Positions 13,865 through 60,950 of a stretch of 64,000 nucleotides of DNA are shown here, piece after piece. Location: NCBI GenBank assembly GCA_964016885.1, contig OZ024740.1, positions 193,812,001 through 193,876,000 on the forward strand, written 5' to 3'. Numbering within the stretch: position 1 is the stretch's first letter; the number at the start of each line of letters is the position of its first letter. Position numbers and translations under genes: made by a program. The stretch comes from Eledone cirrhosa (Eukaryota). Under the pieces are notes generated by a model that was not told the DNA's origin, did not search any database, and saw only the letters and a list, made by a program, of their open reading frames with translations.

Positions 13865-14730
13865 TAGAATTGAGATAAAGGGTTTGTGGTTATTCTGGCA
13901 TCCGGCTGGTGTTCAAATTGTTCTCTTTTTAGCTGTTGGTTGATGATTGTCACGTGAATAAGTACATCAAATTTCGCGCCAGTTCGTGTTTGAGGGTTCT
14001 TTACTGCCATTTTCACAGTCACATGATTTGTCATACAGAGTTTTGTGCAAAAGAAAAAGGTAAAGGTTAAGAAATGGGAGGGGGAGAAATCTTCTGATTC
14101 AGTGAGTATGTCTGATGTGCTGAGATGTCAAAATTCAGACTTTCTTTTGAAATAAATTGAATGTTTGTGTCGATAGTGTGTGAGGTAAGAATAAAAAACA
14201 AAAATATATTTTCGTTATGAGTGTGTATGTGTTTGTGTCTGTCTCTGTGTGTGTAAGGGGAGGTGAGTATAGTTAACATATTATTAACGTGTATATGTTA
14301 ACACCTTAACATGCTAACTATAACCCCCCCCCCCCCCTACACACACAGACACAAACACACACACATACACACTCATAAAAAATATATTTCTATTTTTTAT
14401 TCTTACCTCACACACTATCGACACAAACATTCAATTAATTTCAATAGAAAGTCTGAATTTTGACATCTCAGCACATCAGACACACTCACTGAATCAAAAG
14501 ATTTCTCCCCCTCCCATTTCTTGACGTTTATCTTTTTTTTTGGCACAAAATTCTGTATGACAAATCATGTGACTGTGAAAATGGCAGTAAAGAACTCTCA
14601 AACACAAACTGGCGCGAAATTTGATGTACTTATTCACGTGACAATCATCAACCAACCAAATTACACTTTAAATATAAACAATTTCAACACCAGCCGGATG
14701 CCAGAAAAACGACAAACCCTTCATCTCAAT

Positions 14731-14734
<4 letters not shown>
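13865..14734. repeat. Inverted repeat with ~410-bp arms, bounded by TA tracts
   Basis: 13865-14278 is the reverse complement of ~14310-14734 (e.g. CACGTGAATAAGTACATCAAATTTCGCGCCAGTT / AACTGGCGCGAAATTTGATGTACTTATTCACGTG). The left arm has an unpaired tail at 13710-13864. Confidence 0.9.
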
Positions 14735-14769
<35 letters not shown>

Positions 14770-14933
14770 AATTAGTATATCTACCAACATATGTATACAG
14801 ATGCATACATATGCTAGCAATTATATATGTTTTGTCTTAGTAACTTTGTGGTTCTATGCAAGGGGATGCAGAACAATTATATAAAAGACGTAAATAAGAA
14901 AGTTATGAAAATTGACTTACTTACTAAAATTTC

Positions 14934-15014
14934 ACTCCAACTAATTAGTTTCTGTAAGGGGATAAATATGGTTACGGAGCGTATCCACAGAGAAACCTTA
15001 CGTCATCAAGGAGT
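14934..15014 (-). ncRNA. HHR, array unit L1 (core TTGATGA, C3U)
   Basis: Minus strand reads ACTCC-TTGATGA-C-GTAAGG..CCTTAC-A-GAAAC-TAATTA-GT-T-GGAGT. Confidence 0.7.
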
Positions 15015-15457
15015 GTATTCTCAGCTAAGCTTCCAGGCAATGCGAGGACACTGGGAAGTTATATAAAAATAATTCAGTGGATGGAAAAAAGCGAGCGGGG
15101 ACTAGATTCCAAGACATTTAAAATTCACTGCCTACTTGGTCAAGTTGCAAATTCAAAAGAATCACTCACGTGACACTGAGGTTAATCAGTGCGGAGTGGG
15201 GTGCTATTAAGACAGGGCCTAGCCACTACTATTAATCATAGTAGTAATTTCGGCAAGTTTTGCTCAACAAATAATTTGGAGATTATTATAAAGAATTAGT
15301 ATATCTACCAACATATGCATACAGATGCATACCTATGCTAGCAAATATATATGTTTTGTCTTAGTAACTTTGTGGTTCTATGCAAGGGGATGCAGAACAA
15401 TTATATGAAAGACGTAAATAAGAAAGTTATGAACATTGACTTACTTACTAAAATTTC

Positions 15458-15538
15458 ACTCCAACTAATTAGTTTCTATAAGGGGATAAATATGGTTACG
15501 GAGCGTATCCACAGAGAAACCTTACGTCATCAGGGATT
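15458..15538 (-). ncRNA. HHR, array unit L2
   Basis: CTGATGA core and GAAAC-TAATTA-GTT intact; minor stem changes. Confidence 0.75.
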
Positions 15539-15982
15539 CTATTCTCAGCTAAGCTTCCAGGCAATGCGAGGACACTGGGAACTTATATAAAAATAATTCA
15601 GTGGATGGAAAGAAGCGAGAGGGGACTAGATTCCAAGACATTGAAAAATTCACTGCCTACTAGGTTAAGTGGCAAATTTAAAAGAATCAATCACGTGACA
15701 CTGAGGTTAATCAGTGAGGAGTGGGGTGCTATTAAGACAGGGCCTAGCCAATACTATTAATCATAGTAGTAATTTCGGCAAGTTTTGATCACAAAATAAT
15801 TTGGAGATAATTATAAAGAATTAGTATATCTACCAATATATGTATACAGATGCATACCTATGCTAGCAAATATATATGAGTTGTCTTAGTAACATTTTGG
15901 TTCTATGCAAGGGGATGCAGAACAATTATATGAAAGACGTAAATAAGAAAGTTATGAAAATTGACTTACTTACTAAAATCTC

Positions 15983-16064
15983 ACTCCTAACTAATTAGTT
16001 TCTGTATGGTGATAAATATGGTTACGTAGCGTATCCACAGAGAAACCTTACGTCATCAGGGAGT
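15983..16064 (-). ncRNA. HHR, array unit L3
   Basis: Core intact; one extra nucleotide at the cleavage site and a stem II mismatch. Confidence 0.65.
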
Positions 16065-16374
16065 CTATTCTCAGCTAAGCTTCCAGGCAATGCGAGGACA
16101 CTGGGAACTTATATAAAAATAATTCAGTGGATGAAAAAAAGCGAGCGTGTACTAGATTCCAAGACATTGAAAAATTCACTGCCTACTTGGTCAAGTGGCA
16201 AATTCAAAAGAATCAGTCACGTGACACTGAGGTTAATCAGTGAGGAGTGGGGTGCAATCATAACTTTTTCAATGTCTTGGAATCTAGTCCCCACTCTCTT
16301 TTTTCCATCCACTGAATTATTTTTATATAAGTTCCCAGTATCTTCACATTGCCTCGCAGCTTAGCTGAGAATAG

Positions 16375-16455
16375 ACTTCCTGATGACGTAAGGTTTCTCT
16401 GTGGATACGCTCCGTAACCATATTTATCCCCTTACAGAAACTAATTAGTTGGAGT
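16375..16455 (+). ncRNA. HHR, array unit R1
   Basis: ACTTC-CTGATGA-C-GTAAGG..CCTTAC-A-GAAAC-TAATTA-GT-T-GGAGT; stem I pairs with one G-U. Confidence 0.82.
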
Positions 16456-16899
16456 GAAATTTTAGTAAGTATGTCAATTTTCATAACTTTCTTGTTTACG
16501 TCTTTCATATAATTGTTCTGCATCCCCTTGCATAGAACCAAAAAGTTACTAAGACAAAACATATATATTTGCTAGCATAGATATGCATCTGTATACATAT
16601 GTTGGTAGATATACTAATTCTTTATAATTATCTCCAAATTATTTGTTGAGCAAAACTTGCCGAAATTACTAATATGATTAATAGTAGTGGCTAGGCCCTG
16701 TCTTAATAGCACCCCACTCCTCACCGATTAACCTCAGTGTCACGTGACTGATTCTTTTGAATTTCCCACTTGACCAAGTAGGCAGTGAATTGTTCAATGT
16801 CTTGGAATCTACTCCCCGCTCCATTTTTTCCATCCACTGAATTATTTTTATATAAGTTCCCAGTGTCCTCGCATTGCCTGGAAGCTTAGCTTAGAATAG

Positions 16900-16980
16900 A
16901 CCCCCTGATGACGTAAGGTTTCTCTGTGGATACACTCCGTAACCATATTTATCCCCTTACAGAAACTAATTAGTTGGAGT
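16900..16980 (+). ncRNA. HHR, array unit R2
   Basis: ACCCC-CTGATGA-CGTAAGG..CCTTACA-GAAACTAATTAGTT-GGAGT. Confidence 0.78.
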
Positions 16981-17421
16981 GAAATTTTAGAAAGTAAGTC
17001 AATTTTCATAACTTTCTTATTTACGTCTTTCATATAATTGTTCTGCATCCCCTTGCATAGAACCAAAAAGTTACTAAGACAAAACGTATATATTTGCTAG
17101 CATAGGTATTAATCTGTACATATGTTGGTAGATATATTAATTCTTTATAATTATCTCCAAATTATTTGTTGTGCAAAACTTTCCGAAATTACTACTATGA
17201 TTAATAGTAGTGGCTAGGCCTTGTCTTATAGCACCCCACTCCTCACTGATTAACCTCAGTGTCACGTGACTGATTCTTTTGAATTTGCCACTTCACCAAG
17301 TAGGCAGTGAATTTTTCAATGTCTTGGAATCTAGTCCCCGCTCGCTTTTTTCCATCCACTGAATTATTTTTATATAAGTTCCCAGTGTCCTCGCATTGCC
17401 TGGAAGCTTAGCTGAGAATAG

Positions 17422-17502
17422 ACTCCCTAATGACGTAACGTTTCTCTGTGGATACGGTCCGTAACCATATTTATCCCCTTACAGAAACTAATTAGTTGGA
17501 GT
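17422..17502 (+). ncRNA. HHR, array unit R3, probably inactive (G5A)
   Basis: Core reads CTAATGA; the rest of the fold is largely retained. Confidence 0.6.
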
Positions 17503-17549
17503 GAAATTGTAGTAAGTATGTCAATTTTCTTAACTTTCTTATTTACGTC

Positions 17550-17648
<99 letters not shown>

Positions 17649-17832
17649 TATGTATACGTACATACATATATGTATACAGACATACAGTTATACATATAAG
17701 TATGTAGTATACATATTTATATTTAAGTAACAGCCGGACTAAGAGTGAGAAATGAAATTTCGTTTCATTTTTTCCGTTTACATATATATATATATATATA
17801 CATATATATACACACATATACATATATACATT

Positions 17833-27128: not shown

Positions 27129-30100
27129 TGAATACTGATAATAAAAGCAATTCGACTTTATCAAACAGTGAACTACAGCGGCCACAGCGTGAAGCCAGGA
27201 ATGAAGAAACGGGCCGAACAGCGCCATGAACGCCGAACTTCAGGTGCGAAGACGTGCCTCCATGAAGGAAGAGGGGCTGACTGAACAACGCCAACGAAAC
27301 ACTGGAGCCAAGCAACGACGGCGTGCTGCGATTGTTGAAGACGAACTGGCAGAGCATCATCAGCAGATGGCTAGAATTCAGCAGCAACGGCGTGCTGCGA
27401 TGGGTGAAGAGGTGCTGGCTGAACAGCGCCAGCACAATACAGAAGTTCAGAGAATGTGTCGCCAAAGTGCTCCTCATTCCAGTAAAGAGGCTAGAAGGCG
27501 AACGAATGATATTAAAAATGGATCATGGCAACCGTTGCATTTTCAGATTGGTGGACGCGCAGAGTGTCCACATTGTGGAGCATTGCCTTTGAGGCACGAA
27601 AAGACGTGGACCACAATGTGCTGTCATAAAGGAGCAGTTCAACTATAACCCTTGCGAATGCCGGATGATGAGGAGTCACCGGTGTTTAAAATACTAAGTA
27701 TGTGGGGGCATCAAGGAGACCGAGGTAGATATTCGCGGCAAATTAACAATTCCTTAGCTTTAGCATCGTAGAGAGTTAGTGAGATGTTTGAGAGTAGAGC
27801 ATGGCAACCGAACGTAGTCATTCAAGGCCGTTTGTATCATTGTATCGTTAATTTAGAAGTTACTCCAGGAGAGAGGCCTCGTTTCGCTCAAATTTACGTT
27901 AACGATCCAGATTCTAGTGAATCGGAGGAGGATATCAGGATCGGTTGGATGAAGTTGCCGTGAAATATAACTGAACTTGAACGGCAAAGGTTAAGTGATT
28001 TTATCCGTGATTTGCAATCATGGCTTAGACAGTGTAATCCTTATGTTATGGATTTCATGTTGGTGGCTGAACTGCAAAATGTTCAGCAGCAAACATTGGT
28101 GATTAAGGCTGACGCAGTGACAAGGAATTAACACGAACGGCGATATAATGCCCCTGAAGGATTTCGTGAAGTTACTGTGTTGATGGACGATAAGCCTGGA
28201 TCGAGAGATATCGTCCTCAATCGCAGAGATGGTGGTCTCAAGACGATCAATGAATCAAATAGGGCATACGATCCATTGCATTATGTTCTTTTATTCCCAA
28301 AAGGTGAAAATGGATGGAACATGTCTGTTCATTTAGAGGATCATGAGAATCAGCATCAACAGGGAGGTAGCAAGAAACACAATAATTCGATTCGCGACTT
28401 TAACGCGTTCCATTTGAACGAGAGGAATCAACAGAGAAATGCACTATTTGAAGCCAGCAGATTGTTCCAGGAATACTGTTGTATGGCATTCGCAAAGATC
28501 GAAAATCAAAGGCTAAATTATATAGCTACACATCAGCAACATTTCAGAGCTGAATTGTATAATAATATACAGGATGCGATAACAGCCGATGATGCCAATT
28601 ACAAGCAAATTGGTCGACGCATCATTTTGCCATCGTCGTTCATCAGTGGCCCGAGATATATGAGGATTCTCTATCAGGGTGCAATCGCTATTGTCAGAAA
28701 GTTTAGAAAGCCAGATTTGTTTATAACGGTTACATGAAATCCTGAATAGACTGATATTAAGGATGCACTTTTGCCAGGACAACAGCCAAAGGACCATCCT
28801 GATATTGTGGCAAGATTATTCAAAGGATATCTGAAAAAGATAATGGATGATGTGGAAAAAGAAGGAATCTTTGGAGGTATATTTTACATACGTAATTGAA
28901 TTCCAAAAAAGAGGATTTCCCATGCACATTTGCTGATCATTTTACATAGAGATTGCAAATTGAGATGTGCTGAGGATGTCGACAGCATTGTGTGTGCTGA
29001 ACTGCCGGAGAGGAGGCACTATGCAACTTGGTGGCAAAGTCAATGGTGCACAACCAATGCGGAGTGGCATATCGGAAAGCGCTTTGCATGGAAAATGGCC
29101 AATGCAGTAAGCACTTTCCGAAATCTTTTGTCACGAACACTTCCTGGAACGATGGGGATGCTCATCCCTCATACAGAAGACGGTCATCTGCAGATTCTGC
29201 GGTTTTGTCGAAAATGTAAACGGTCGACAGTTTACAAATCAATGGGTTGTGCCATACAAACCATATTTGATTATGAAATATAGTTGTCATATTAATGTGG
29301 AAATTTGTAGCTCAGTGAAAGCTTGCAAATATCTATTCAAATATGTTTACAAAGGTCATGATCGGGCAATGATCAATGTGAGGAATGAGGAAGCGAACCA
29401 AGGAGATGGAGTTGGCAGGTTCCAGGATGTTCGCTCGATTGGATCTAGCGAAGCTTGCTGGAGATTCTTTGATTTTGATCTCAATGAACGCAAACCCAGC
29501 GTTCAGAAACTGACGATTCACTTAGAGAATAGGCAAATGGTCTGTTTTCAGGACACTAGAAGATGTGTCGAAAGAATTGCTAACGCACCACCTCCTAAGT
29601 CGGAATTGACTGAGTGGTTCAAGCATAATAGGGAACATGCTTTGAAACCGGATGAAAGGCAACTCTACTTCGATTTCCCTTCGCACTATACGTGGGATAA
29701 GAAGGGAAAGAAATGGAATGATAGAAAAAAAAGTTGAGATTCATGAATATTGGACGGGTTTGTAATGTCTATCCAGCATCTGGTGATGTGTTTTATCACC
29801 GAATTCTGTTGCATTATGATTTTTCGCTGATTTGAAAACAATCAATGGCGTGGAATATGAAACATACCAGGCTGTGTGTCAGCATCTGGGACACCTTCAG
29901 GATGACGCTGAATGAAATAAGGCCATGGAAGCTGCAGGAACAACACAGATGCCAGCTCAAATAAGGCAGTTGTTTGTCACGATTCTAAGATTCTACAATC
30001 CTTCCGATCCAAGAGAGTTATTTGAACGCCATTGGAGAATTATGGCTGATGATTTTAGGTTTCATCTTCAGGTCGATGTTGAAAATTTGATGAAAGCTAT

Positions 30101-31851
30101 TGTTTTGCTCAATATTGAGTAACTGCTTGAAGTTCATTTGAAATGTTTAACAGATTTCAATTTGCCAATTCCTGATGGAGAAATGCGGCAACGTATCTTA
30201 GCATTGAACATGAGAGTGCAGCTTAGACGGTTGCCACTCGATCGGAGTGAACTATTCCAGTTTTATCCACTGGAATAGTAACGTATTGTCGATGAACGTA
30301 TGCCAATGTTGACTCAATCTCAGAGAGATTGCGTTCTCCACTCGATTTACACTAATGAGCAACTTTGTGCTTTCATAGATGCTCCAGGAGGCACCGGAAA
30401 TACATTCTGTTTCAACACTATGTTATCGGCAGTCAGAGCTCAGAGGAAGATTGCTCTTCCTGTGGCTTCCAGCAAATATCTGTGTGCCATTGGAGCTCGT
30501 CCCAAATAATCAGAGACGTATTGCGTATAAGGCCCGCGAGTTCACTTTTTCCTGTAATGTTACATACACTCAACTCATCCGGACCCAATGGAGCCTTGAA
30601 GCATGAGTGGAAGGTCCTGCCACCACTCAGCAAAGTGGCAGTGAACCCACTGTTCACTTCCACTTTGCTGAGTGGTGGAAGGACCTTCCACTCATGCTTC
30701 AAGGCTCCATTGGGTCCGGATGAGTTGAGTGTATGTAACATTACAGGACAAAGTGAACTCGCGGGCGTTATACGCAATACGTCTCTGATTATTTATGCCG
30801 AGATCTAATGGCACACAGATATTTGCTGGAGGCATTGGACAGAACTTTGAGAGATATCTGCGGTAGTGACCTGCCATTCGGTGGTAAGACTATCGTTCTT
30901 GGTGGCGATTTCAGACATGTGCTACCAATTGTTAGGAATACTCAAAGAGCGCAAATTCTCGATGCATGTCTGAAAAAGTCCCCGTTGTGGTGCCATTTCA
31001 GAGTTTTGCGATTACACGATAATATGCGACTTCGTATGTTCGGGCAAAACGAAGAGGCTGAGACATACGGCCGATGGTTGGTGCAATTGGGAAACGATGA
31101 ATTGCCACACGTTGGTGATAATCAGACTGTAAGAATCCCAGACCATTTGGTCATGCCACTGGACCGCCAAGCATTGATTGACTGGGTATTCCCTAATTTG
31201 AACGCTTTTTGGCAGAATATCTCCTGCATATCGGAACGCGTTATTCTAACTCATACGAATGCAACGGTCGATGAAATAAATTCACAAGTAGCCGGAATGT
31301 TTCCTGGAGAGGAATGATTGACCGTCAGTGCGGATGCAATGGAGCCTAATCAGCAGAACAATATGGATGTTCCGACTGAGTATCTGAATTGACTTCAAAT
31401 ACCCGGATTTCCTCCACATATTTTGAGGTTGAAAAGAGGTATGGCAATTATATTGCTTAGAAATATCAATCATAAAATGGGTCTTTGCAATGGTACCAGA
31501 TTTATTGTTGAGAGATTGATTAACGGAAGAGTTTTAGAAGCTAAACTCCCAGGCAGAGAGGAATCGGTTCTCATTCTGAGGATCATGCTGAGACCAGGTG
31601 AAGATCTGCTGCCATTCATTTGGCAAAGGAGACAGTTTCCCGTCAATTTAGCCTTCTCCATGACTGTCAACAAGGCACAGGGACAGATTTTCAGGCGAGT
31701 CGGTGTCTACTTGAATGATCCAGCATTCAGCCATGGGCAACTGAATGTTGTTGCATCTCGAGTATGCGATCCTGATGGTATTAAATTTGCAATTAATACC
31801 ACTAACAGAGGAACAAACCTGCATATTTTCTGTAATGAAGCTTTAAGCTGA
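27129..31851 (+). pseudogene. Helitron Rep (HUH)-Pif1 helicase pseudogene
   Basis: N-terminal ~22-aa Q/R/E repeats; CPHCGAL..CCHKG zinc finger; AYDPLHYVLLFPKGENGW; ILPSSFISGPRYM; PDLFITVT*NP; EFQKRG.PHAHLL; KYLFKYVYKGHD; DAPGGTG; LGGDFRHVLP; RRQFPVNLAFSMTVNKAQGQ; FSHGQL. Many stops and frameshifts. Confidence 0.95.
30465..30833. repeat. Inverted duplication (~180-bp arms, 5-nt spacer) inside the helicase
   Basis: 30465-30646 is the reverse complement of 30652-30833; centre GTGAAC-CCACT-GTTCAC. Confidence 0.95.
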
Positions 31852-50146: not shown

Positions 50147-50301
50147 TTCATTATTTAACGATCGTTTCTAGGATATATATGTGTTAGAATTGGTATGCAT
50201 ATTCAACAGATCTATGTACAAAATTATACAAAATTATACAAATTATCAAGATTAAATATACATACCAAACACATATATACGCCGTCTTCAGAAATAATGA
50301 A
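50147..50301 (-). ncRNA. HHR in the 3' pLTR of PLE-2
   Basis: Minus strand reads TTCATTATTT-CTGAAGA-[116 nt]-GAAAC-GATC-GT-T-AAATAATGAA; 10-bp stem I and palindrome AACGATCGTT. Confidence 0.82.
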
Positions 50302-51107
50302 GTATATTTATTGATAATAACAACAATTCAAAATTTCAGTTCAAAATTGACCAATGAAAACACAAAGGGTTAAATGCAGTTCGGTGTGTGTATATACATG
50401 TAAAACCCTTACACATATTTTACAAAAATGTATGTATAATTTGTATACGCATACTAAAAGGATGGATGCAAATACAAAATTTCAAGGTTAATGTCTCTGT
50501 AAGCTTACAATGCGCAGATAAGATGCGCATTGATACTTATGAAATCAAGTATATAAATATATTTTTTCATACTCACACATATCAGTACAATCACACATAC
50601 ACGCGCGTATATGCATAAATATACACATAACCACGAACATACAAACACACACACACCCCCACTCACATTTATATATGTGGATATAAAATCATAAGCACAT
50701 GGATATTAATTCACTCACATAAAACACTGGCACACACATTTCTAGATCAAGATACAGAAATTAGGTGGGAGGGGGGGAGGGGTCAGTATTCAATTGTCTG
50801 AGCAGACTGCCTAATATAAATGTATCTATAAATTAAGAAAAATAAAAAAATAAAACAATAAAATATAATAAATATAATATAATATACATACACATACAGA
50901 TATATAGACATACATACATGTACACACACATAGAAATATTTACGCATACACACATACACACATACATATACAGTCATACACACACATACACTTACACGAA
51001 CATACACATACACATATATAAAGATATATATATACACACACACACACACACATACACATATATATAAAAAATAAATAATAAAGATATATACCCATATATA
51101 TATACAT

Positions 51108-51144
<37 letters not shown>

Positions 51145-51223
51145 CATACACATACATCTAAATATACATACACATACATACACACATACATGTACATACA
51201 TATACATACATATACGCACATCG

Positions 51224-51266
<43 letters not shown>

Positions 51267-51542
51267 TAGACATATAGATACATACACACACAACTTACAT
51301 ACACACATATATATATACATGTATATTCATACATAGAATTAGATATATAATCATACATACATATGCACTTACTTATACTCATATATACAAATACATACGC
51401 ATCCATATATGCGTATATACATAAAAAACCCCTACAACCTCACCTAACTCAGACATACAAATAAAAATAATAATAAAAAGGCATATGTATATACATACAC
51501 ACACGCATTAATAGAGATATATATATACACACATACATACAC

Positions 51543-51573
<31 letters not shown>

Positions 51574-51858
51574 TATATATATATATACACACACATACAC
51601 TCATACATATATATATATATATATATATACACATAGATATCCACACACTCATACCACCATAAATACACATACAAACACCCACATATACATATATATACAC
51701 ACGTATATATATATATATATATATACACACACATAAAAAACAGACATGCACATATATATATATATTTTTTTACACTTATATATACACATATTATATACAC
51801 ATACACAACCTCACTTATACACACATACACATAAGTTATATTATAATAATAAAGAATA

Positions 51859-51901
<43 letters not shown>

Positions 51902-51997
51902 CATACATACATACATATACATACATACATATAAACATATACATACATAAATACACACATACGAATAAAGACATATATTCACACATAGACACCTATA

Positions 51998-52058
<61 letters not shown>

Positions 52059-53179
52059 ATATACACAGACACATATACACACTCACATATATATATGTGT
52101 GTGTGTGCACACACACATATATATACACACACACACACAAATACACATAAACACATACATATGCATACATGCACACACACACACATATATCACATAGATA
52201 CGAAGATAAACATATAAATAGAGAGACATACATATATATACAACACACATACACACACATACATACACACGCATATACATATACATATATATATATACAT
52301 ATATATATTTTCCTATATATACATGCATACATATATATACACATATATACACATACATACACATATACGTACACACATTCACATACACATACATATATAA
52401 TGCATATATACACACATATACATACATATACACACTCATATATACACACGCAATCTTACATTCATATTTGCATGCGCATATATGTATTTTTATATTTAGA
52501 TATAAATACCCAAACCTATATAGAAACCTACCTACATATATATTCATACATAGACGCTTACAAATATAGATGATAATAGTATGGGGGAAAGGGGGGGTTT
52601 GGAGAAGGGGATCAAAGTAAATATATGTTTCAAGAAACATAGAATATTTTCCGTATCTTTATCCAATGTATGTTCTCACATATTTTCAGTGTTAGGAAAT
52701 ACGACAAACAAGAACTAAGGCAAAATCTATGCATCTCAAAATAAATAAGTATACCATTAATCATATGTTAACTAAACCAAAGATAGTCAACATATTGATT
52801 TCTAAGGTGTAAATTAGTTAGGTTTATAATATTTGAAGCAGAATTTTGAAGTTAAATAGTAGTAGATTATTAATTACAGTATAACTAAATTAAAGTTAAT
52901 AACGTTATGGTATCAATATTAGGAAATGAATTTAGTAATAGGGAAAAAAAACCCAAATAAAAATAAAATAAAGTATTACATCGGTAGTAGAATATAAATT
53001 ATATGTTAACTAAATTAAAAATTATATATTTATTTCAATAGTATATGTTAATTAGGTATACAATACATAAAGCAGATATTGTATTTCATCAATAGCATAA
53101 TATAATTATATGCAAATAGAAATCAAAATTAATACGCATACATATACATATACATACACATACATATATACATACATAT

Positions 53180-53224
<45 letters not shown>

Positions 53225-53747
53225 TACATACATACACATACACATACACACACACACATACACATACACATATACATATACATATCTTTTTCAAAAAATT
53301 GCATAGAATATATTAACTAGGTATATATCCAAAACACATCCCATTCTATGATTACATGACATTCTGCAATTCATCTGTATAAGGATACTAATTTTAAGCA
53401 AATTAAAATTAAAATTTTTAGGTTGATTAAAACTAAAACCAAATAATAAATAAATTTCTAAAATGTATATTAATTAGGTCTATAATACTAAAAATTATTT
53501 CACTGTCATTGGATACACGATATTATTTTGTTATATTTTATCTGTAAAAGAGTTATAATAAAAGTTTTAAATAAATTAAAATTAATCTATAAATTAAATT
53601 ACTAAGTATATATTAGTAATATTTAAAGGTTTTTCACAATTTATGATTACATAATATTTTATATTTTCATCTGTAATAAAATATTAATTAAATTAAATTT
53701 ATAGGTTAACTAACATTTAAATTAAATTAATTTCTAAAATAATGTTA

Positions 53748-56189
53748 TTAATTAGGTTTATAATATTTAAATGTTTTTTTTAGTTTATGATTACACGATA
53801 TAATTAATTCCTGTCGTTTATTTAATAAGATATCCCTAGACTTCATTATTTCAAATAGTTCTTGGGAACATAATCTACATTCATTTCTATTATTTTGATA
53901 AGGGGTGGCTCTTTTGAGCACACTCCAGGTCAAATCATATTTTATATTCTTATTTTTATAACTATTGATTTTTTCTGCTAGAGATGTTGTATTAGCCAGT
54001 GCGGCATTTTTAAAACTATGCTTGTGGGTATTAAACCTTGTCTTAAAATTGTTAGAGGTAGCTCCTATATATGAGCAAATAGAATCTTTAGTTTTAACAT
54101 TACATTTATAGACTATGTTGTTAACAAGACAATTCCCTTTTAATGGGCAGTTTGCTTTGTTTCTACAGTTACATCCTTTCGTTAATTCTGTATTTGAGGA
54201 GATATTATGGTTAATTTGATGTACTGGTGGTATACTTATGGTTTTCTTACATTTATATGCATTATATGCACTTATATTTTGTTTTATGTTATTTGTTGTA
54301 GAGTATGAGAATTTAACTGTAGACCTATTTAAGATTTGATGGTATTTGTGGTTTGGCGGGAAGTTTTTCTCAAGGATATAAAAAAATTGTTTAGCAATAT
54401 TATCCTTAACTTGTAAATTAAAAGGAGCATTATACCAAGTAACCCGTCTATTACGGTTTCTATGTTGTTTATTATTTTTATTATTTTTATAGGTTGTATC
54501 GTGATTTTTACTAGGAGGATTAATGTTAATGATCTCACCACAACTATTTTTAGTTATATTTGTAGATTTAGGTGTTTTATCTTTTTTATTAGGAGTTTTA
54601 TTATTAATATTTATTATAGTTGTATGATGAGTAGTTTTTTGAGAGTTACTATACTTTATATTAGAAGATTTAGTATTTTGGGGTATAGTGTGGGTGGCAT
54701 TTAGGTGTGTACTTTTCATTTGGTGTTTGTTGGTAATATTATGTTGTATGCTTTCAGTATTTTTAGTAGAAGGTATATACTCTAATCTATTTTTGTGGCC
54801 ACTTCTATCTAGAGCTTCGTTATAGAAGGTCGCATTTTTATCAAATACATCTTGGTTAGAAGAAAGGTTAGAAATTCTAAGTGATATATTATATGCAAGG
54901 TTTTTAAGGATAGATTTAGGGTGATTAGATTGTGAGTGTATGTAATGTAAGTTTTGGTTAGGTTTATGGTAAGGTTGGTAGATACCCGTAGCTAAATCTA
55001 AAGTTATATCTAGGAAATTTACTACTTTACTTGTTTTTTCAAAAGTAATATTAAGATTATAATAGTCTTTAAGGAAAGTTCTAATATGTTTTTTGTTTTT
55101 TTCGATTTCTGAAAGGCTAAGGTTGTTAGAAAGAAGAAGACAGTCATCACGATATAAACCACCTTTGAGGTGGGGAAAAGAGGCATTTATGTTGAAAAGG
55201 AGAAAGAGGCCCACAAGATCAGTAATTTGGGCGGAATCGCTTGAACCCATAGTAATATCAAAAAGATTACTGTATGTGTTTCTGGTCCAGTATTCATTCT
55301 GAAATTCAATAAGTGTTAGTCTAGCATGTGTAATAATGTTAATGTCATCCAAAGTTAAGTTAGATCTATTTTTAGCAAATATCAATGCTTTGTTCAGGAG
55401 TATAGGTGATATAGAAGAATAGTAATTATCTATATCAAATTGTAGGAAAGAAGCAGAAGATTTACACCTAATATTTTTAAACCAGTTAATTACCTGGGAG
55501 GTGTTTTCCCAGAGTAGTAAAATAACGTGTTTTCTTATTTGTGGGATGACTCTATCTAAAATTTTTTTGCTAATTATTCCAATATCTGATTTGGAGGGAC
55601 ATATAAGTCTAATAGAAGGATTTGAGTTAAAGTTAGATTTGTGATCTTTCAGGTTGAAGTGTGGTCTTTTCAATGCCAAAGGTTCAGTTCTATCTTCAAT
55701 GTTTAGTTTTTTTACTATGTTGTGTGTTTTGTTGTTGATGTTGGTGAGTGACACATTATTAGATTTTTTATAATTTTTTCTGAGTTCTTTATATATGAAC
55801 TCGTTATAATGTTCAATATCCATATGATACAAGTTACCAGTTTTGTCCGAGTGGACATGGATTTTTTTAGACTTTTTTAGGTCCAATAGGGTAGAATCAA
55901 GGTCCTTTTGAAAGACGGATTTATACTTTTTAAATTTGAGGTGTTTAATTAAATTAAAAAGGTCTTTCTCGAAGTCTTCAAGTAAAAAGTTGTGTGGTGG
56001 ATTCTTGTAAGTATTGAAATCATACATATATTTCCGATCTGCTTGTTTAGATTTTCTATCGAAGTGGTAGGCTCTCCATCTAACCCTTCTGATAAAATTA
56101 TTAGTTTTCTGAATCATAAGGAGTAAGAAGTCGTCCTTAGAAGGTATTGGTATGTTTTTTAAGGAGGTTCCTAAATATTGTTTTTCCAT
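53748..56189 (-). CDS. Intact PLE polyprotein: reverse transcriptase plus C-terminal GIY-YIG endonuclease (Naiad-like by motif recall)
   Basis: Uninterrupted ORF (first ATG at 56189; track start TTG at 56210) with SLKNIPIP, RRVRWRA, SDKTGN, LKDHK..RLICPSKSDIG, FDIDNYYSSI, TMGSSD, GGLYRDD, FLDITLDL, YHKP..YIH..SNHP, CNC..CPL..C and NIVYKC..YIGAT..FKTRF..H. Confidence 0.95.
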   Translation of the reverse strand: MEKQYLGTSLKNIPIPSKDDFLLLMIQKTNNFIRRVRWRAYHFDRKSKQADRKYMYDFNTYKNPPHNFLLEDFEKDLFNLIKHLKFKKYKSVFQKDLDSTLLDLKKSKKIHVHSDKTGNLYHMDIEHYNEFIYKELRKNYKKSNNVSLTNINNKTHNIVKKLNIEDRTEPLALKRPHFNLKDHKSNFNSNPSIRLICPSKSDIGIISKKILDRVIPQIRKHVILLLWENTSQVINWFKNIRCKSSASFLQFDIDNYYSSISPILLNKALIFAKNRSNLTLDDINIITHARLTLIEFQNEYWTRNTYSNLFDITMGSSDSAQITDLVGLFLLFNINASFPHLKGGLYRDDCLLLSNNLSLSEIEKNKKHIRTFLKDYYNLNITFEKTSKVVNFLDITLDLATGIYQPYHKPNQNLHYIHSQSNHPKSILKNLAYNISLRISNLSSNQDVFDKNATFYNEALDRSGHKNRLEYIPSTKNTESIQHNITNKHQMKSTHLNATHTIPQNTKSSNIKYSNSQKTTHHTTIININNKTPNKKDKTPKSTNITKNSCGEIININPPSKNHDTTYKNNKNNKQHRNRNRRVTWYNAPFNLQVKDNIAKQFFYILEKNFPPNHKYHQILNRSTVKFSYSTTNNIKQNISAYNAYKCKKTISIPPVHQINHNISSNTELTKGCNCRNKANCPLKGNCLVNNIVYKCNVKTKDSICSYIGATSNNFKTRFNTHKHSFKNAALANTTSLAEKINSYKNKNIKYDLTWSVLKRATPYQNNRNECRLCSQELFEIMKSRDILLNKRQELIISCNHKLKKTFKYYKPN

Positions 56190-56532
56190 TGTGATATGGA
56201 TGATGGACAATTGAAAGAGCTCAACTAAATGTATATGGGTTTACAAAATCATACATATATATATGTTTATACATAAATATAAAATTAATACACACATACA
56301 GTACAAAAATACGAATATTTCCGTGAAAATAGGAGCAAAATTATGTAGATAAATCTACCAAGAGTTTACGGTAGTGTCCAATCCGTATGAAGAACTCAAT
56401 GTATTCCGGATATCATGGAAAGAAGAGATGTAATGAAAAACCACTTTCGGTGAAAGATAAACGGTATACAGAGTCAAGATAAAATATTAAACAAATAATG
56501 AATAAACAATTCCTTATATTAAACAAAAAAAG

Positions 56533-56687
56533 TTCATTATTTAACGATCGTTTCTAGGATATATATGTGTTAGAATTGGTATGCATATTCAACAGATCTA
56601 TGTACAAAATTATACAAAATTATACAAATTATCAAGATTAAATATACATACCAAACACATATATACGCCGTCTTCAGAAATAATGAA
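56533..56687 (-). ncRNA. HHR in the upstream pLTR of PLE-2
   Basis: Same sequence as 50147-50301; lies ~350 nt 5' of the ORF start. Confidence 0.82.
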
Positions 56688-57493
56688 GTATATTTATTGA
56701 TAATAACAACAATTCAAAATTTCAGTTCAAAATTGACCAATGAAAACACAAAGGGTTAAATGCAGTTCGGTGTGTGTATATACATGTAAAACCCTTACAC
56801 ATATTTTACAAAAATGTATGTATAATTTGTATACGCATACTAAAAGGATGGATGCAAATACAAAATTTCAAGGTTAATGTCTCTGTAAGCTTACAATGCG
56901 CAGATAAGATGCGCATTGATACTTATGAAATCAAGTATATAAATATATTTTTTCATACTCACACATATCAGTACAATCACACATACACGCGCGTATATGC
57001 ATAAATATACACATAACCACGAACATACAAACACACACACACCCCCACTCACATTTATATATGTGGATATAAAATCATAAGCACATGGATATTAATTCAC
57101 TCACATAAAACACTGGCACACACATTTCTAGATCAAGATACAGAAATTAGGTGGGAGGGGGGGAGGGGTCAGTATTCAATTGTCTGAGCAGACTGCCTAA
57201 TATAAATGTATCTATAAATTAAGAAAAATAAAAAAATAAAACAATAAAATATAATAAATATAATATAATATACATACACATACAGATATATAGACATACA
57301 TACATGTACACACACATAGAAATATTTACGCATACACACATACACACATACATATACAGTCATACACACACATACACTTACACGAACATACACATACACA
57401 TATATAAAGATATATATATACACACACACACACACACATACACATATATATAAAAAATAAATAATAAAGATATATACCCATATATATATACAT

Positions 57494-57530
<37 letters not shown>

Positions 57531-57609
57531 CATACACATACATCTAAATATACATACACATACATACACACATACATGTACATACATATACATACATATA
57601 CGCACATCG

Positions 57610-57650
<41 letters not shown>

Positions 57651-57926
57651 TAGACATATAGATACATACACACACAACTTACATACACACATATATATAT
57701 ACATGTATATTCATACATAGAATTAGATATATAATCATACATACATATGCACTTACTTATACTCATATATACAAATACATACGCATCCATATATGCGTAT
57801 ATACATAAAAAACCCCTACAACCTCACCTAACTCAGACATACAAATAAAAATAATAATAAAAAGGCATATGTATATACATACACACACGCATTAATAGAG
57901 ATATATATATACACACATACATACAC

Positions 57927-57957
<31 letters not shown>

Positions 57958-58242
57958 TATATATATATATACACACACATACACTCATACATATATATAT
58001 ATATATATATATACACATAGATATCCACACACTCATACCACCATAAATACACATACAAACACCCACATATACATATATATACACACGTATATATATATAT
58101 ATATATATACACACACATAAAAAACAGACATGCACATATATATATATATTTTTTTACACTTATATATACACATATTATATACACATACACAACCTCACTT
58201 ATACACACATACACATAAGTTATATTATAATAATAAAGAATA

Positions 58243-58285
<43 letters not shown>

Positions 58286-58381
58286 CATACATACATACAT
58301 ATACATACATACATATAAACATATACATACATAAATACACACATACGAATAAAGACATATATTCACACATAGACACCTATA

Positions 58382-58442
<61 letters not shown>

Positions 58443-59563
58443 ATATACACAGACACATATACACACTCACATATATATATGTGTGTGTGTGCACACACAC
58501 ATATATATACACACACACACACAAATACACATAAACACATACATATGCATACATGCACACACACACACATATATCACATAGATACGAAGATAAACATATA
58601 AATAGAGAGACATACATATATATACAACACACATACACACACATACATACACACGCATATACATATACATATATATATATACATATATATATTTTCCTAT
58701 ATATACATGCATACATATATATACACATATATACACATACATACACATATACGTACACACATTCACATACACATACATATATAATGCATATATACACACA
58801 TATACATACATATACACACTCATATATACACACGCAATCTTACATTCATATTTGCATGCGCATATATGTATTTTTATATTTAGATATAAATACCCAAACC
58901 TATATAGAAACCTACCTACATATATATTCATACATAGACGCTTACAAATATAGATGATAATAGTATGGGGGAAAGGGGGGGTTTGGAGAAGGGGATCAAA
59001 GTAAATATATGTTTCAAGAAACATAGAATATTTTCCGTATCTTTATCCAATGTATGTTCTCACATATTTTCAGTGTTAGGAAATACGACAAACAAGAACT
59101 AAGGCAAAATCTATGCATCTCAAAATAAATAAGTATACCATTAATCATATGTTAACTAAACCAAAGATAGTCAACATATTGATTTCTAAGGTGTAAATTA
59201 GTTAGGTTTATAATATTTGAAGCAGAATTTTGAAGTTAAATAGTAGTAGATTATTAATTACAGTATAACTAAATTAAAGTTAATAACGTTATGGTATCAA
59301 TATTAGGAAATGAATTTAGTAATAGGGAAAAAAAACCCAAATAAAAATAAAATAAAGTATTACATCGGTAGTAGAATATAAATTATATGTTAACTAAATT
59401 AAAAATTATATATTTATTTCAATAGTATATGTTAATTAGGTATACAATACATAAAGCAGATATTGTATTTCATCAATAGCATAATATAATTATATGCAAA
59501 TAGAAATCAAAATTAATACGCATACATATACATATACATACACATACATATATACATACATAT

Positions 59564-59608
<45 letters not shown>

Positions 59609-60131
59609 TACATACATACACATACACATACACACACACACATACACATACACATATACATATACATATCTTTTTCAAAAAATTGCATAGAATATATTAA
59701 CTAGGTATATATCCAAAACACATCCCATTCTATGATTACATGACATTCTGCAATTCATCTGTATAAGGATACTAATTTTAAGCAAATTAAAATTAAAATT
59801 TTTAGGTTGATTAAAACTAAAACCAAATAATAAATAAATTTCTAAAATGTATATTAATTAGGTCTATAATACTAAAAATTATTTCACTGTCATTGGATAC
59901 ACGATATTATTTTGTTATATTTTATCTGTAAAAGAGTTATAATAAAAGGTTTAAATAAATTAAAATTAATCTATAAATTAAATTACTAAGTATATATTAG
60001 TAATATTTAAAGGTTTTTCACAATTTATGATTACATAATATTTTATATTTTCATCTGTAATAAAATATTAATTAAATTAAATTTATAGGTTAACTAACAT
60101 TTAAATTAAATTAATTTCTAAAATAATGTTA

Positions 60132-60950
60132 TTAATTAGGTTTATAATATTTAAATGTTTTTTTTAGTTTATGATTACACGATATAATTAATTCCTGTCG
60201 TTTATTTAATAAGATATCCCTAGACTTCATTATTTCAAATAGTTCTTGGGAACATAATCTACATTCATTTCTATTATTTTGATAAGGGGTGGCTCTTTTG
60301 AGCACACTCCAGGTCAAATCATATTTTATATTCTTATTTTTATAACTATTGATTTTTTCTGCTAGAGATGTTGTATTAGCCAGTGCGGCATTTTTAAAAC
60401 TATGCTTGTGGGTATTAAACCTTGTCTTAAAATTGTTAGAGGTAGCTCCTATATATGAGCAAATAGAATCTTTAGTTTTAACATTACATTTATAGACTAT
60501 GTTGTTAACAAGACAATTCCCTTTTAATGGGCAGTTTGCTTTGTTTCTACAGTTACATCCTTTCGTTAATTCTGTATTTGAGGAGATATTATGGTTAATT
60601 TGATGTACTGGTGGTATACTTATGGTTTTCTTACATTTATATGCATTATATGCACTTATATTTTGTTTTATGTTATTTGTTGTAGAGTATGAGAATTTAA
60701 CTGTAGACCTATTTAAGATTTGATGGTATTTGTGGTTTGGCGGGAAGTTTTTCTCAAGGATATAAAAAAATTTTTTAGCAATATTATCCTTAACTTGTAA
60801 ATTAAAAGGAGCATTATACCAAGTAACCCGTCTATTACGGTTTCTATGTTGTTTATTATTTTTATTATTTTTATAGGTTGTATCGTGATTTTTACTAGGA
60901 GGATTAATGTTAATGATCTCACCACAACTATTTTTAGTTATATTTGTAGA
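60132..60950 (-). pseudogene. 3' portion (linker plus GIY-YIG) of the PLE-2 ORF in the truncated upstream copy
   Basis: Matches 53748-54568; cut off by (TA)n at ~60951. Confidence 0.9.

Follow-up and report, generated by a model that had tools for sequence, protein, structure and literature searches.

Metazoan non-LTR retrozymes are described as non-coding tandem units of low GC content with one type-I hammerhead ribozyme each, which measure 51-972 bp, occur as dispersed dimers or multimers and as long arrays, and share their host genomes with Penelope-like elements (PLEs) (Cervera and de la Pena 2020, PMC7229834; Li et al. 2026, bioRxiv 10.64898/2026.07.22.740005). In the published examples the copies lie head to tail and expression as circles was shown, whereas in the family described here circles are predicted and the insertions carry the footprint of a PLE: an inverted truncated arm, a tail and a TA target. 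The dependence of retrozymes on PLEs has been argued from co-occurrence and pLTR similarity (Li et al. 2026). PLE insertions themselves contain an inverted, 5'-truncated copy plus a tail of 30-40 nt (Craig et al. 2021, PMC8557442; Arkhipova et al. 2013, PMC3846280); self-priming was proposed for their head-to-head repeats (Arkhipova et al. 2013), and the mechanism of inverted insertion was later called "still undefined" (Craig et al. 2021). The purified protein of the anole Poseidon PLE, predicted to be dimeric, cuts and extends both strands of an AT-rich target in vitro and initiates at two internal positions, which delimit the tail (Frangieh et al. 2024, PMC11167929). The PLE mirror and its one-sided tail are thus already known qualitatively. 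In the literature on PLEs and retrozymes, older subscription PLE reviews aside, we found no statement of strict start-site coupling within an insertion, no exclusion of fold-back by arm lengths and no description of mirrored retrozymes. The present family bears on two questions in print: the origin of PLE head-to-head insertions and whether PLE enzymes move animal retrozymes.

The window, a 64,000-nucleotide stretch of the Eledone cirrhosa genome, contains one palindromic array built of units of ~524 bp, 2.85 in one arm and 2.47 in the other (BLAST E 0), in close agreement with the original prediction of ~2.9 and ~2.5 (Table 1). Six type-I hammerhead motifs were located, exactly one per unit as predicted, with cut-to-cut spacings of 525 and 522 nt; their 3' ends face outward, so the array is head-to-head. 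The (TA)n tracts at both ends and the lack of a credible ORF had also been anticipated: the longest stop-free frame in the array is 121 aa and has no Pfam match. The unit has a GC content of 36%, and there is neither an internal region between repeats nor an LTR organisation. All three features that had made the locus appear retrozyme-like (non-coding sequence, tandem units, one type-I hammerhead in each) were tested and found, and by these features the array belongs to the non-LTR retrozymes, its RNA-level traits being predicted and its insertions being of the PLE type. The length of the unit does not set it apart, contrary to what had been suggested, because 524 nt falls within the range given by Li et al. 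(2026). An ORF with RT and GIY-YIG endonuclease is absent from the array, which fits a non-autonomous PLE and is not an autonomous one.

Table 1. Features of the retrozyme locus; positions are those of the window.
Feature	Position	Strand	Remarks
(TA)n microsatellite, left half of target site	14733-14766		
Left arm, 2.85 tandem units, 1494 nt	14763-16255	minus (ribozyme sense)	outer 3' end = site B; 5'-truncated at unit position ~194-197
"Tail" between sites A and B, 112-115 nt	14763-14879	minus	two conserved hairpins with compensatory changes; outer end on left arm only
Hammerhead motif	14933-15014	minus	core change C3U (at 15009)
Hammerhead motif	15457-15538	minus	intact core, stem I mismatch
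Hammerhead motif	15983-16064	minus	intact core; 1-nt insertion past cut site; stem II mismatch
Head-to-head junction, 9-nt insert	16256-16264		
Right arm, 2.47 tandem units, 1295 nt	16265-17558	plus (ribozyme sense)	5'-truncated at unit position 278; 3' end = site A
Hammerhead motif	16375-16456	plus	core and stems intact; predicted cut after 16450 (GUU triplet)
Hammerhead motif	16900-16981	plus	intact core, one stem I mismatch; predicted cut after 16975
Hammerhead motif	17422-17503	plus	core change G5A (at 17429); stem II mismatch
(TA)n microsatellite, right half of target site	17555-17646		

The palindrome is asymmetric: its arms stop at different fixed sites and turn at unit positions 194 and 278 (unit numbering 1-524 corresponds to window positions 17035-17558). 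The two arms are joined by a 9-nt insert that was probably templated from the element, because a 10-mer overlapping it (16258-16267) is present in each unit, for example at 16481 and 17006. The units are 94-95% identical to one another. Two of the six ribozymes have core changes and three more a stem mismatch or insertion, leaving only the one at 16375-16456 fully intact; consecutive intact cores are found twice (16375 with 16900, and 15457 with 15983), with stem defects in three of these four motifs. The locus is a decayed, ordinary copy of a common repeat.

Several other repeats surround it. Directly to the left (13865-14735) lies another mirrored element with arms ~90% complementary, which resembles the 3' region of a PLE group represented by locus L081; the retrozyme was inserted into the TA tract that ends this element. 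A short many-copy repeat nested in the right TA tract (17646-17782) looks like the end of another TA-targeting family. Further along the window we observed Helitron fragments (28132-31317; matches to Helitron_like_N and PIF1) and a tandem duplication (~50200-56640 and ~56600-60950, offset by ~6.4 kb) that contains an 830-aa open frame on the minus strand (53748-56240) with no Pfam family.

A 22-mer from the 3' half of the ribozyme has 9,169 exact copies in the 3.0-Gb genome (none for the reversed pattern used as a control), and exact ends at one of the two fixed sites, site A, running into TA number 3,329 genome-wide (control, 1). Subfamilies range from 95% down to 71% identity, and TA flanks both ends of nearly all family insertions examined; target-site duplications are unreadable inside (TA)n tracts. 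One related subfamily, ~89% identical to the window unit, forms a pure head-to-tail array of 80.7 kb (G000:C5:84,645,838-84,726,568, covering L255-L263). In it, 145 full units were scored, neighbouring units differ by 5.6% (~5-6%) and the ribozyme core is intact in 77 of the 145. Its end lies at the other fixed site, B, within a (TA)n tract, and an inverted arm was not observed; the array is a retrozyme insertion that has grown into a satellite.

At the gathering score, no Rfam family matched in the window, so the hammerhead call rests on the motif and on covariation. In 160 of 182 distinct dispersed copies the core has the sequence CUGAUGA; stem II position 2 is UA in 131, CG in 31 and AU in 14, and position 5 is GC in 130 and UA in 40, both patterns being compensatory. 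Seven common stem variants were paired in 95% of cases versus 83% with strands reshuffled, a level reached in 9 of 2,000 shuffles. The ribozyme is therefore real as a structure that, judged by this covariation, has been under selection, and self-cleavage is its predicted activity. The core is intact in 86 of 104 dispersed units, and the frequency of core changes (20/1,225, against 2.2% elsewhere) gave no clear signal of purifying selection after insertion. Local folding of the six ribozyme regions in the window was weak (z from -0.1 to -2.6, the hammerhead being the minimum in one of six) and carries no weight as evidence; two natural monomers folded as circles gave z of -2.9 and -4.4 (25 shuffles each).

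The predicted structure shares with PLE-type hammerheads a 5-bp helix I, a 6-bp helix II interrupted by an unpaired nucleotide following A9, the G10.1-C11.1 pair and a short palindromic helix III, and differs from them in an extra A before G12, a long structured loop II and a GUU cleavage triplet (Cervera and de la Pena 2014, PMC4209133). The same source regards the palindromic helix III as suited to dimer folding and records opposite-strand hammerhead pairs 100-700 bp apart. By analogy, the 12-nt palindrome of the present family would fit action as dimers, in line with the original suggestion that its hammerheads could act in pairs. On the other hand, eight of nine predicted dimers of Xenopus retrozymes showed no cleavage in vitro (Li et al. 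2026), which counts against the ribozyme step proposed below. Upstream of the hammerhead we also observed an E-box (17261-17270, unit position 227), whose CACGTG core is present in at least 133 of ~189 copies, and a TATA-like element, TATATAAG (17371-17378, unit position 337), present in 99 of ~189; together they may constitute an internal promoter.

The outer ends of the arms follow a simple rule. An arm stops either at unit position 524 (site A) or at position 110-115 of the next unit (site B), the two sites being 112-115 nt apart. In a sample of 133 loci (55 + 19 chosen by similarity and 59 by position on contig 1), a motif caller identified 60 divergent end pairs, with one end or none called at the other 73 loci: A was paired with B in 59, A with A in none and B with B in one. 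The position-ordered sample, including subfamilies down to 71% identity, contributed 20 of the 59 A/B pairs. The sole B/B pair (L108) proved to be a false motif, as its second end contains no family sequence. An alignment pass over 109 of the 133 loci yielded 80 head-to-head junctions, 64 of them A/B and 15 with one end at neither site; the remaining one, in L216, is an A/A stack lying inside an insertion that has A and B at its outer ends. No divergent A/A counter-example was found among the first 100 listed of the 3,329 exact A-ends, and four divergent B/B candidates among the first 100 listed B-ends all turned out to have A and B outer ends. In L271, exceptionally, an internal 33-nt B stub faces a B arm.

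Between A and B the sequence forms two hairpins, in which 4 of 27 pairs show double changes (28 copies). Two alternative 3' ends with a tail at one end only (59 of 60 pairs), next to a 5'-truncated copy joined head-to-head, are what PLE insertions show, and by these features the A-B stretch is assigned as a PLE tail, although at 112-115 nt it differs from the published 30-40 nt; compared with the insertions described by Craig et al. (2021) and Arkhipova et al. (2013), the present ones also have no ORF, and each of their two arms consists of whole-unit multimers. The mirror at the window locus is the inverted, 5'-truncated copy with tail already familiar from PLEs and is not specific to this locus. 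The same kind of rule holds in an autonomous RT + GIY-YIG family of this genome (three of three mirrored copies, tail of 68-70 nt), and a second, unrelated hammerhead repeat has two fixed ends ~70 nt apart that are paired one-and-one in four of four mirrored copies. Mobilisation by PLEs, which the original prediction had invoked, is thus supported by footprint: the inverted truncated arm, the tail and the TA target all point to it.

Taken together, these observations make it probable, in our judgement, that the window palindrome is a single non-LTR retrozyme insertion written into (TA)n by a borrowed PLE protein that primed on both cut strands, at A and at B of the same RNA. A tandem copy would be transcribed through at least two units, and the hammerheads, probably paired via helix III, would release a monomer of ~524 nt that, by comparison with the retrozyme family, would be circularised. 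A PLE RT-GIY-YIG protein, likely a dimer, would then bind the structured tail and cut (TA)n on both strands, after which one cDNA would start at A and the other at B; the ends are observed, and the enzyme is suggested by the anole work (PMC11167929), from which we likewise assume the dimer and the cutting and extension of both strands. Each cDNA would go round the template over a distance of its own, in many cases exceeding a unit (the lengths are observed), and the two 5'-truncated products would be linked head-to-head through microhomology-mediated end-joining, with a templated insert in some cases. The junctions themselves look like end-joining, because 44 of 80 are overlapping or blunt and 24 carry 1-10 extra bases (the other 12 have more). 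Afterwards the units would decay independently, as in the window, where they are ~5% apart. L1 twin priming also uses two primers from one target break to yield an inverted 5' part joined by microhomology. Its second start is variable and its two parts do not overlap on the RNA, whereas the present insertions have two fixed starts and overlapping arms. Some observations count against the proposed mechanism: the tail is longer than those in print and longer than that of the local autonomous family; there are the L216 stack, the L271 stub and the 15 junctions with one end at neither site; no coding partner came to light in the 63 loci screened for one; and, in the anole PLE in vitro, start-site use did not differ between strands and hammerhead cleavage was not required (PMC11167929). 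That was a bulk assay, which does not address coupling within one event, whereas here the two sites are mutually exclusive partners in each insertion.

The original prediction attributed the mirror to snap-back copying, in which a rolling-circle cDNA folds back, primes itself and copies itself, a route close to the self-priming model of Arkhipova et al. (2013). It would explain why both arms have one haplotype, and arm lengths leave it room at many loci. A fold-back copy of the B arm requires A to be no longer than B minus 115, and one of the A arm requires B to be no longer than A minus 409; by length, 34 of 64 insertions, including the window locus (implied loop, 84 nt), allow a B-arm copy and 9 an A-arm copy, but for 21 both are impossible. 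Among the 34, the implied loop is 30 nt or shorter in only 4. The turn-round points lie within 20 nt of each other, as near-symmetric copying would have it, in 4 of 80 junctions, and the lengths of the two arms show either no relation or a weak negative one (rho -0.24, p 0.05). The pairing of units by mirror position, which had been suggested as a check, gave 174 differences against 177.4 expected in the 20 loci with both kinds of pairs, so mirror units are no closer than others, and the window locus behaves likewise; an apparent contrast in the pooled data (2.3% for mirror versus 3.5% for other pairs) vanished once comparisons were made within loci. Furthermore, copying would have to halt exactly at the other fixed site each time. 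As a general route, snap-back copying is largely refuted, and we consider it improbable as the origin of the window palindrome; the data argue against self-priming in the form proposed in PMC3846280. The other half of the original proposal, a monomeric or circular template of ~524 nt, fared better, with indirect support from arms longer than one unit (78 of 181) and from haplotypes. In 55 loci scored at 13 common variant columns, two units carry the same variant in 83 of 88 comparisons across arms and 78 of 84 along an arm, versus 4,567 of 24,585 (19%) between loci; of 140 locus-columns, 123 are fixed throughout the units, with none in a "some units" state, and ten variants are each restricted to one locus and present in all of its units. 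Because there is one haplotype per insertion, new variants go through a bottleneck of one unit, such as a circle would provide; what single-haplotype insertions show is this monomer bottleneck, not the circle itself. A live rival is priming by a PLE on both DNA strands with an uncleaved linear multimer from a homogenised tandem source as the template, the hammerhead being needed elsewhere or a passenger. A head-to-tail array of 80.7 kb does exist, the anole PLE uses unprocessed RNA in vitro (PMC11167929), and the circle is inferred from DNA. At the window locus, moreover, two one-locus variants are present in three of five units, which fits a heterogeneous multimer; copying one circle in a single pass cannot produce it, and a switch of template or subsequent conversion would be required. 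The 5' ends show no sharp pile-up at the predicted cut (17 observed versus 10 expected at positions 464-484, p 0.03 post hoc), and an excess at unit position 1 was an artefact of short unaligned pieces. But the one long array examined is heterogeneous in sequence and in core integrity and would give mixed daughters, contrary to the fixed columns, and stem II has been kept by compensatory change across subfamilies. We regard this rival as unlikely, though it is the strongest of the alternatives.

Two further readings question the unit and the assembly rather than the copying. The unit might be only the pLTR of an unseen coding PLE, with the copies as its 5'-truncated stumps; the hammerhead type, the tail, the TA target and the inverted copy are all pLTR traits. 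The genome does contain autonomous PLEs alongside the retrozymes (150 scored GIY-YIG matches; RT with GIY-YIG in five of seven long ORFs scanned), and in the 63 loci screened (40 around GIY-YIG matches and 23 further, covering a minority of the GIY-YIG loci) none of the autonomous PLEs has this unit or its tail. Unit matches within these loci are ordinary family copies in TA tracts, and three loci with non-family sequence upstream of the ribozyme (L190, L191 and L226) are truncated copies in duplicated segments, not coding partners. However, units abut head-to-tail without a coding spacer in every multimer seen, none of the 133 family loci has an ORF-linked copy, and the unit retains no coding trace; a unit never multimeric elsewhere, which the original prediction named as its refutation, is not what we found, given up to 145 full units in one array. 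This reading is very improbable. Palindromes in long-read assemblies can be chimeric, and no contig in the three contig sets of one independent sample spans the window junction, although this absence demonstrates nothing. A fold-back chimera or a DNA-level inverted duplication is nevertheless hardly credible: the arms are ~5% different with unit-private changes, the junction is asymmetric and carries an insert, the flanks are not mirrored, the same architecture recurs at 80 places with different junctions, and short-read contigs of the independent sample do join opposite-orientation parts of the family.

For PLE integration at large, we tentatively propose, at somewhat short of even confidence, that it may be an obligately asymmetric two-primer reaction, in which a dimeric RT-endonuclease on the structured tail of one circular RNA would prime with one subunit at A on one DNA strand and with the other at B on the opposite one, both cDNAs rolling round the circle, with the thousands of retrozyme palindromes in this genome as fossil products. 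If so, the family's footprint would be direct evidence that the retrozymes of animals are circles mobilised by enzymes of PLEs, and this reaction would take the place of self-priming in explaining PLE inverted repeats. Being short, non-coding and high in copy number, with fixed starts, strict A/B pairing, independent arm lengths and one haplotype per insertion, the family amounts to a natural experiment that separates the models, and its 524-nt RNA, in which the structured tail is conserved, could readily serve as a minimal template for studying PLEs in vitro.

Other elements of these kinds were observed in the genome. A young autonomous PLE family (L081:2271-7698, at G000:C1:145.87 Mb; also L082, L086, L088, L089 and L092) has a 938-aa open frame with RT and, at its C-terminal end, a GIY-YIG domain, copies 92-97% identical that lie in (TA)n, and pLTRs of ~1 kb; the cysteine motif before its endonuclease suggests a place in the Neptune clade. 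The second hammerhead repeat (L283:10-579, L101:2588-3959, L251:8239-9665, L271:2081-2649 and L091:5938-6157) is tandem and has a GUU triplet and a palindromic helix III; its equal tail length (~70 versus 68-70 nt) suggests that it and the L081 family are possibly an element-partner pair. At L091:1054-2506 and L285:846 there is a third mirrored element with a hammerhead, whose loop II is long and whose helix III is palindromic.
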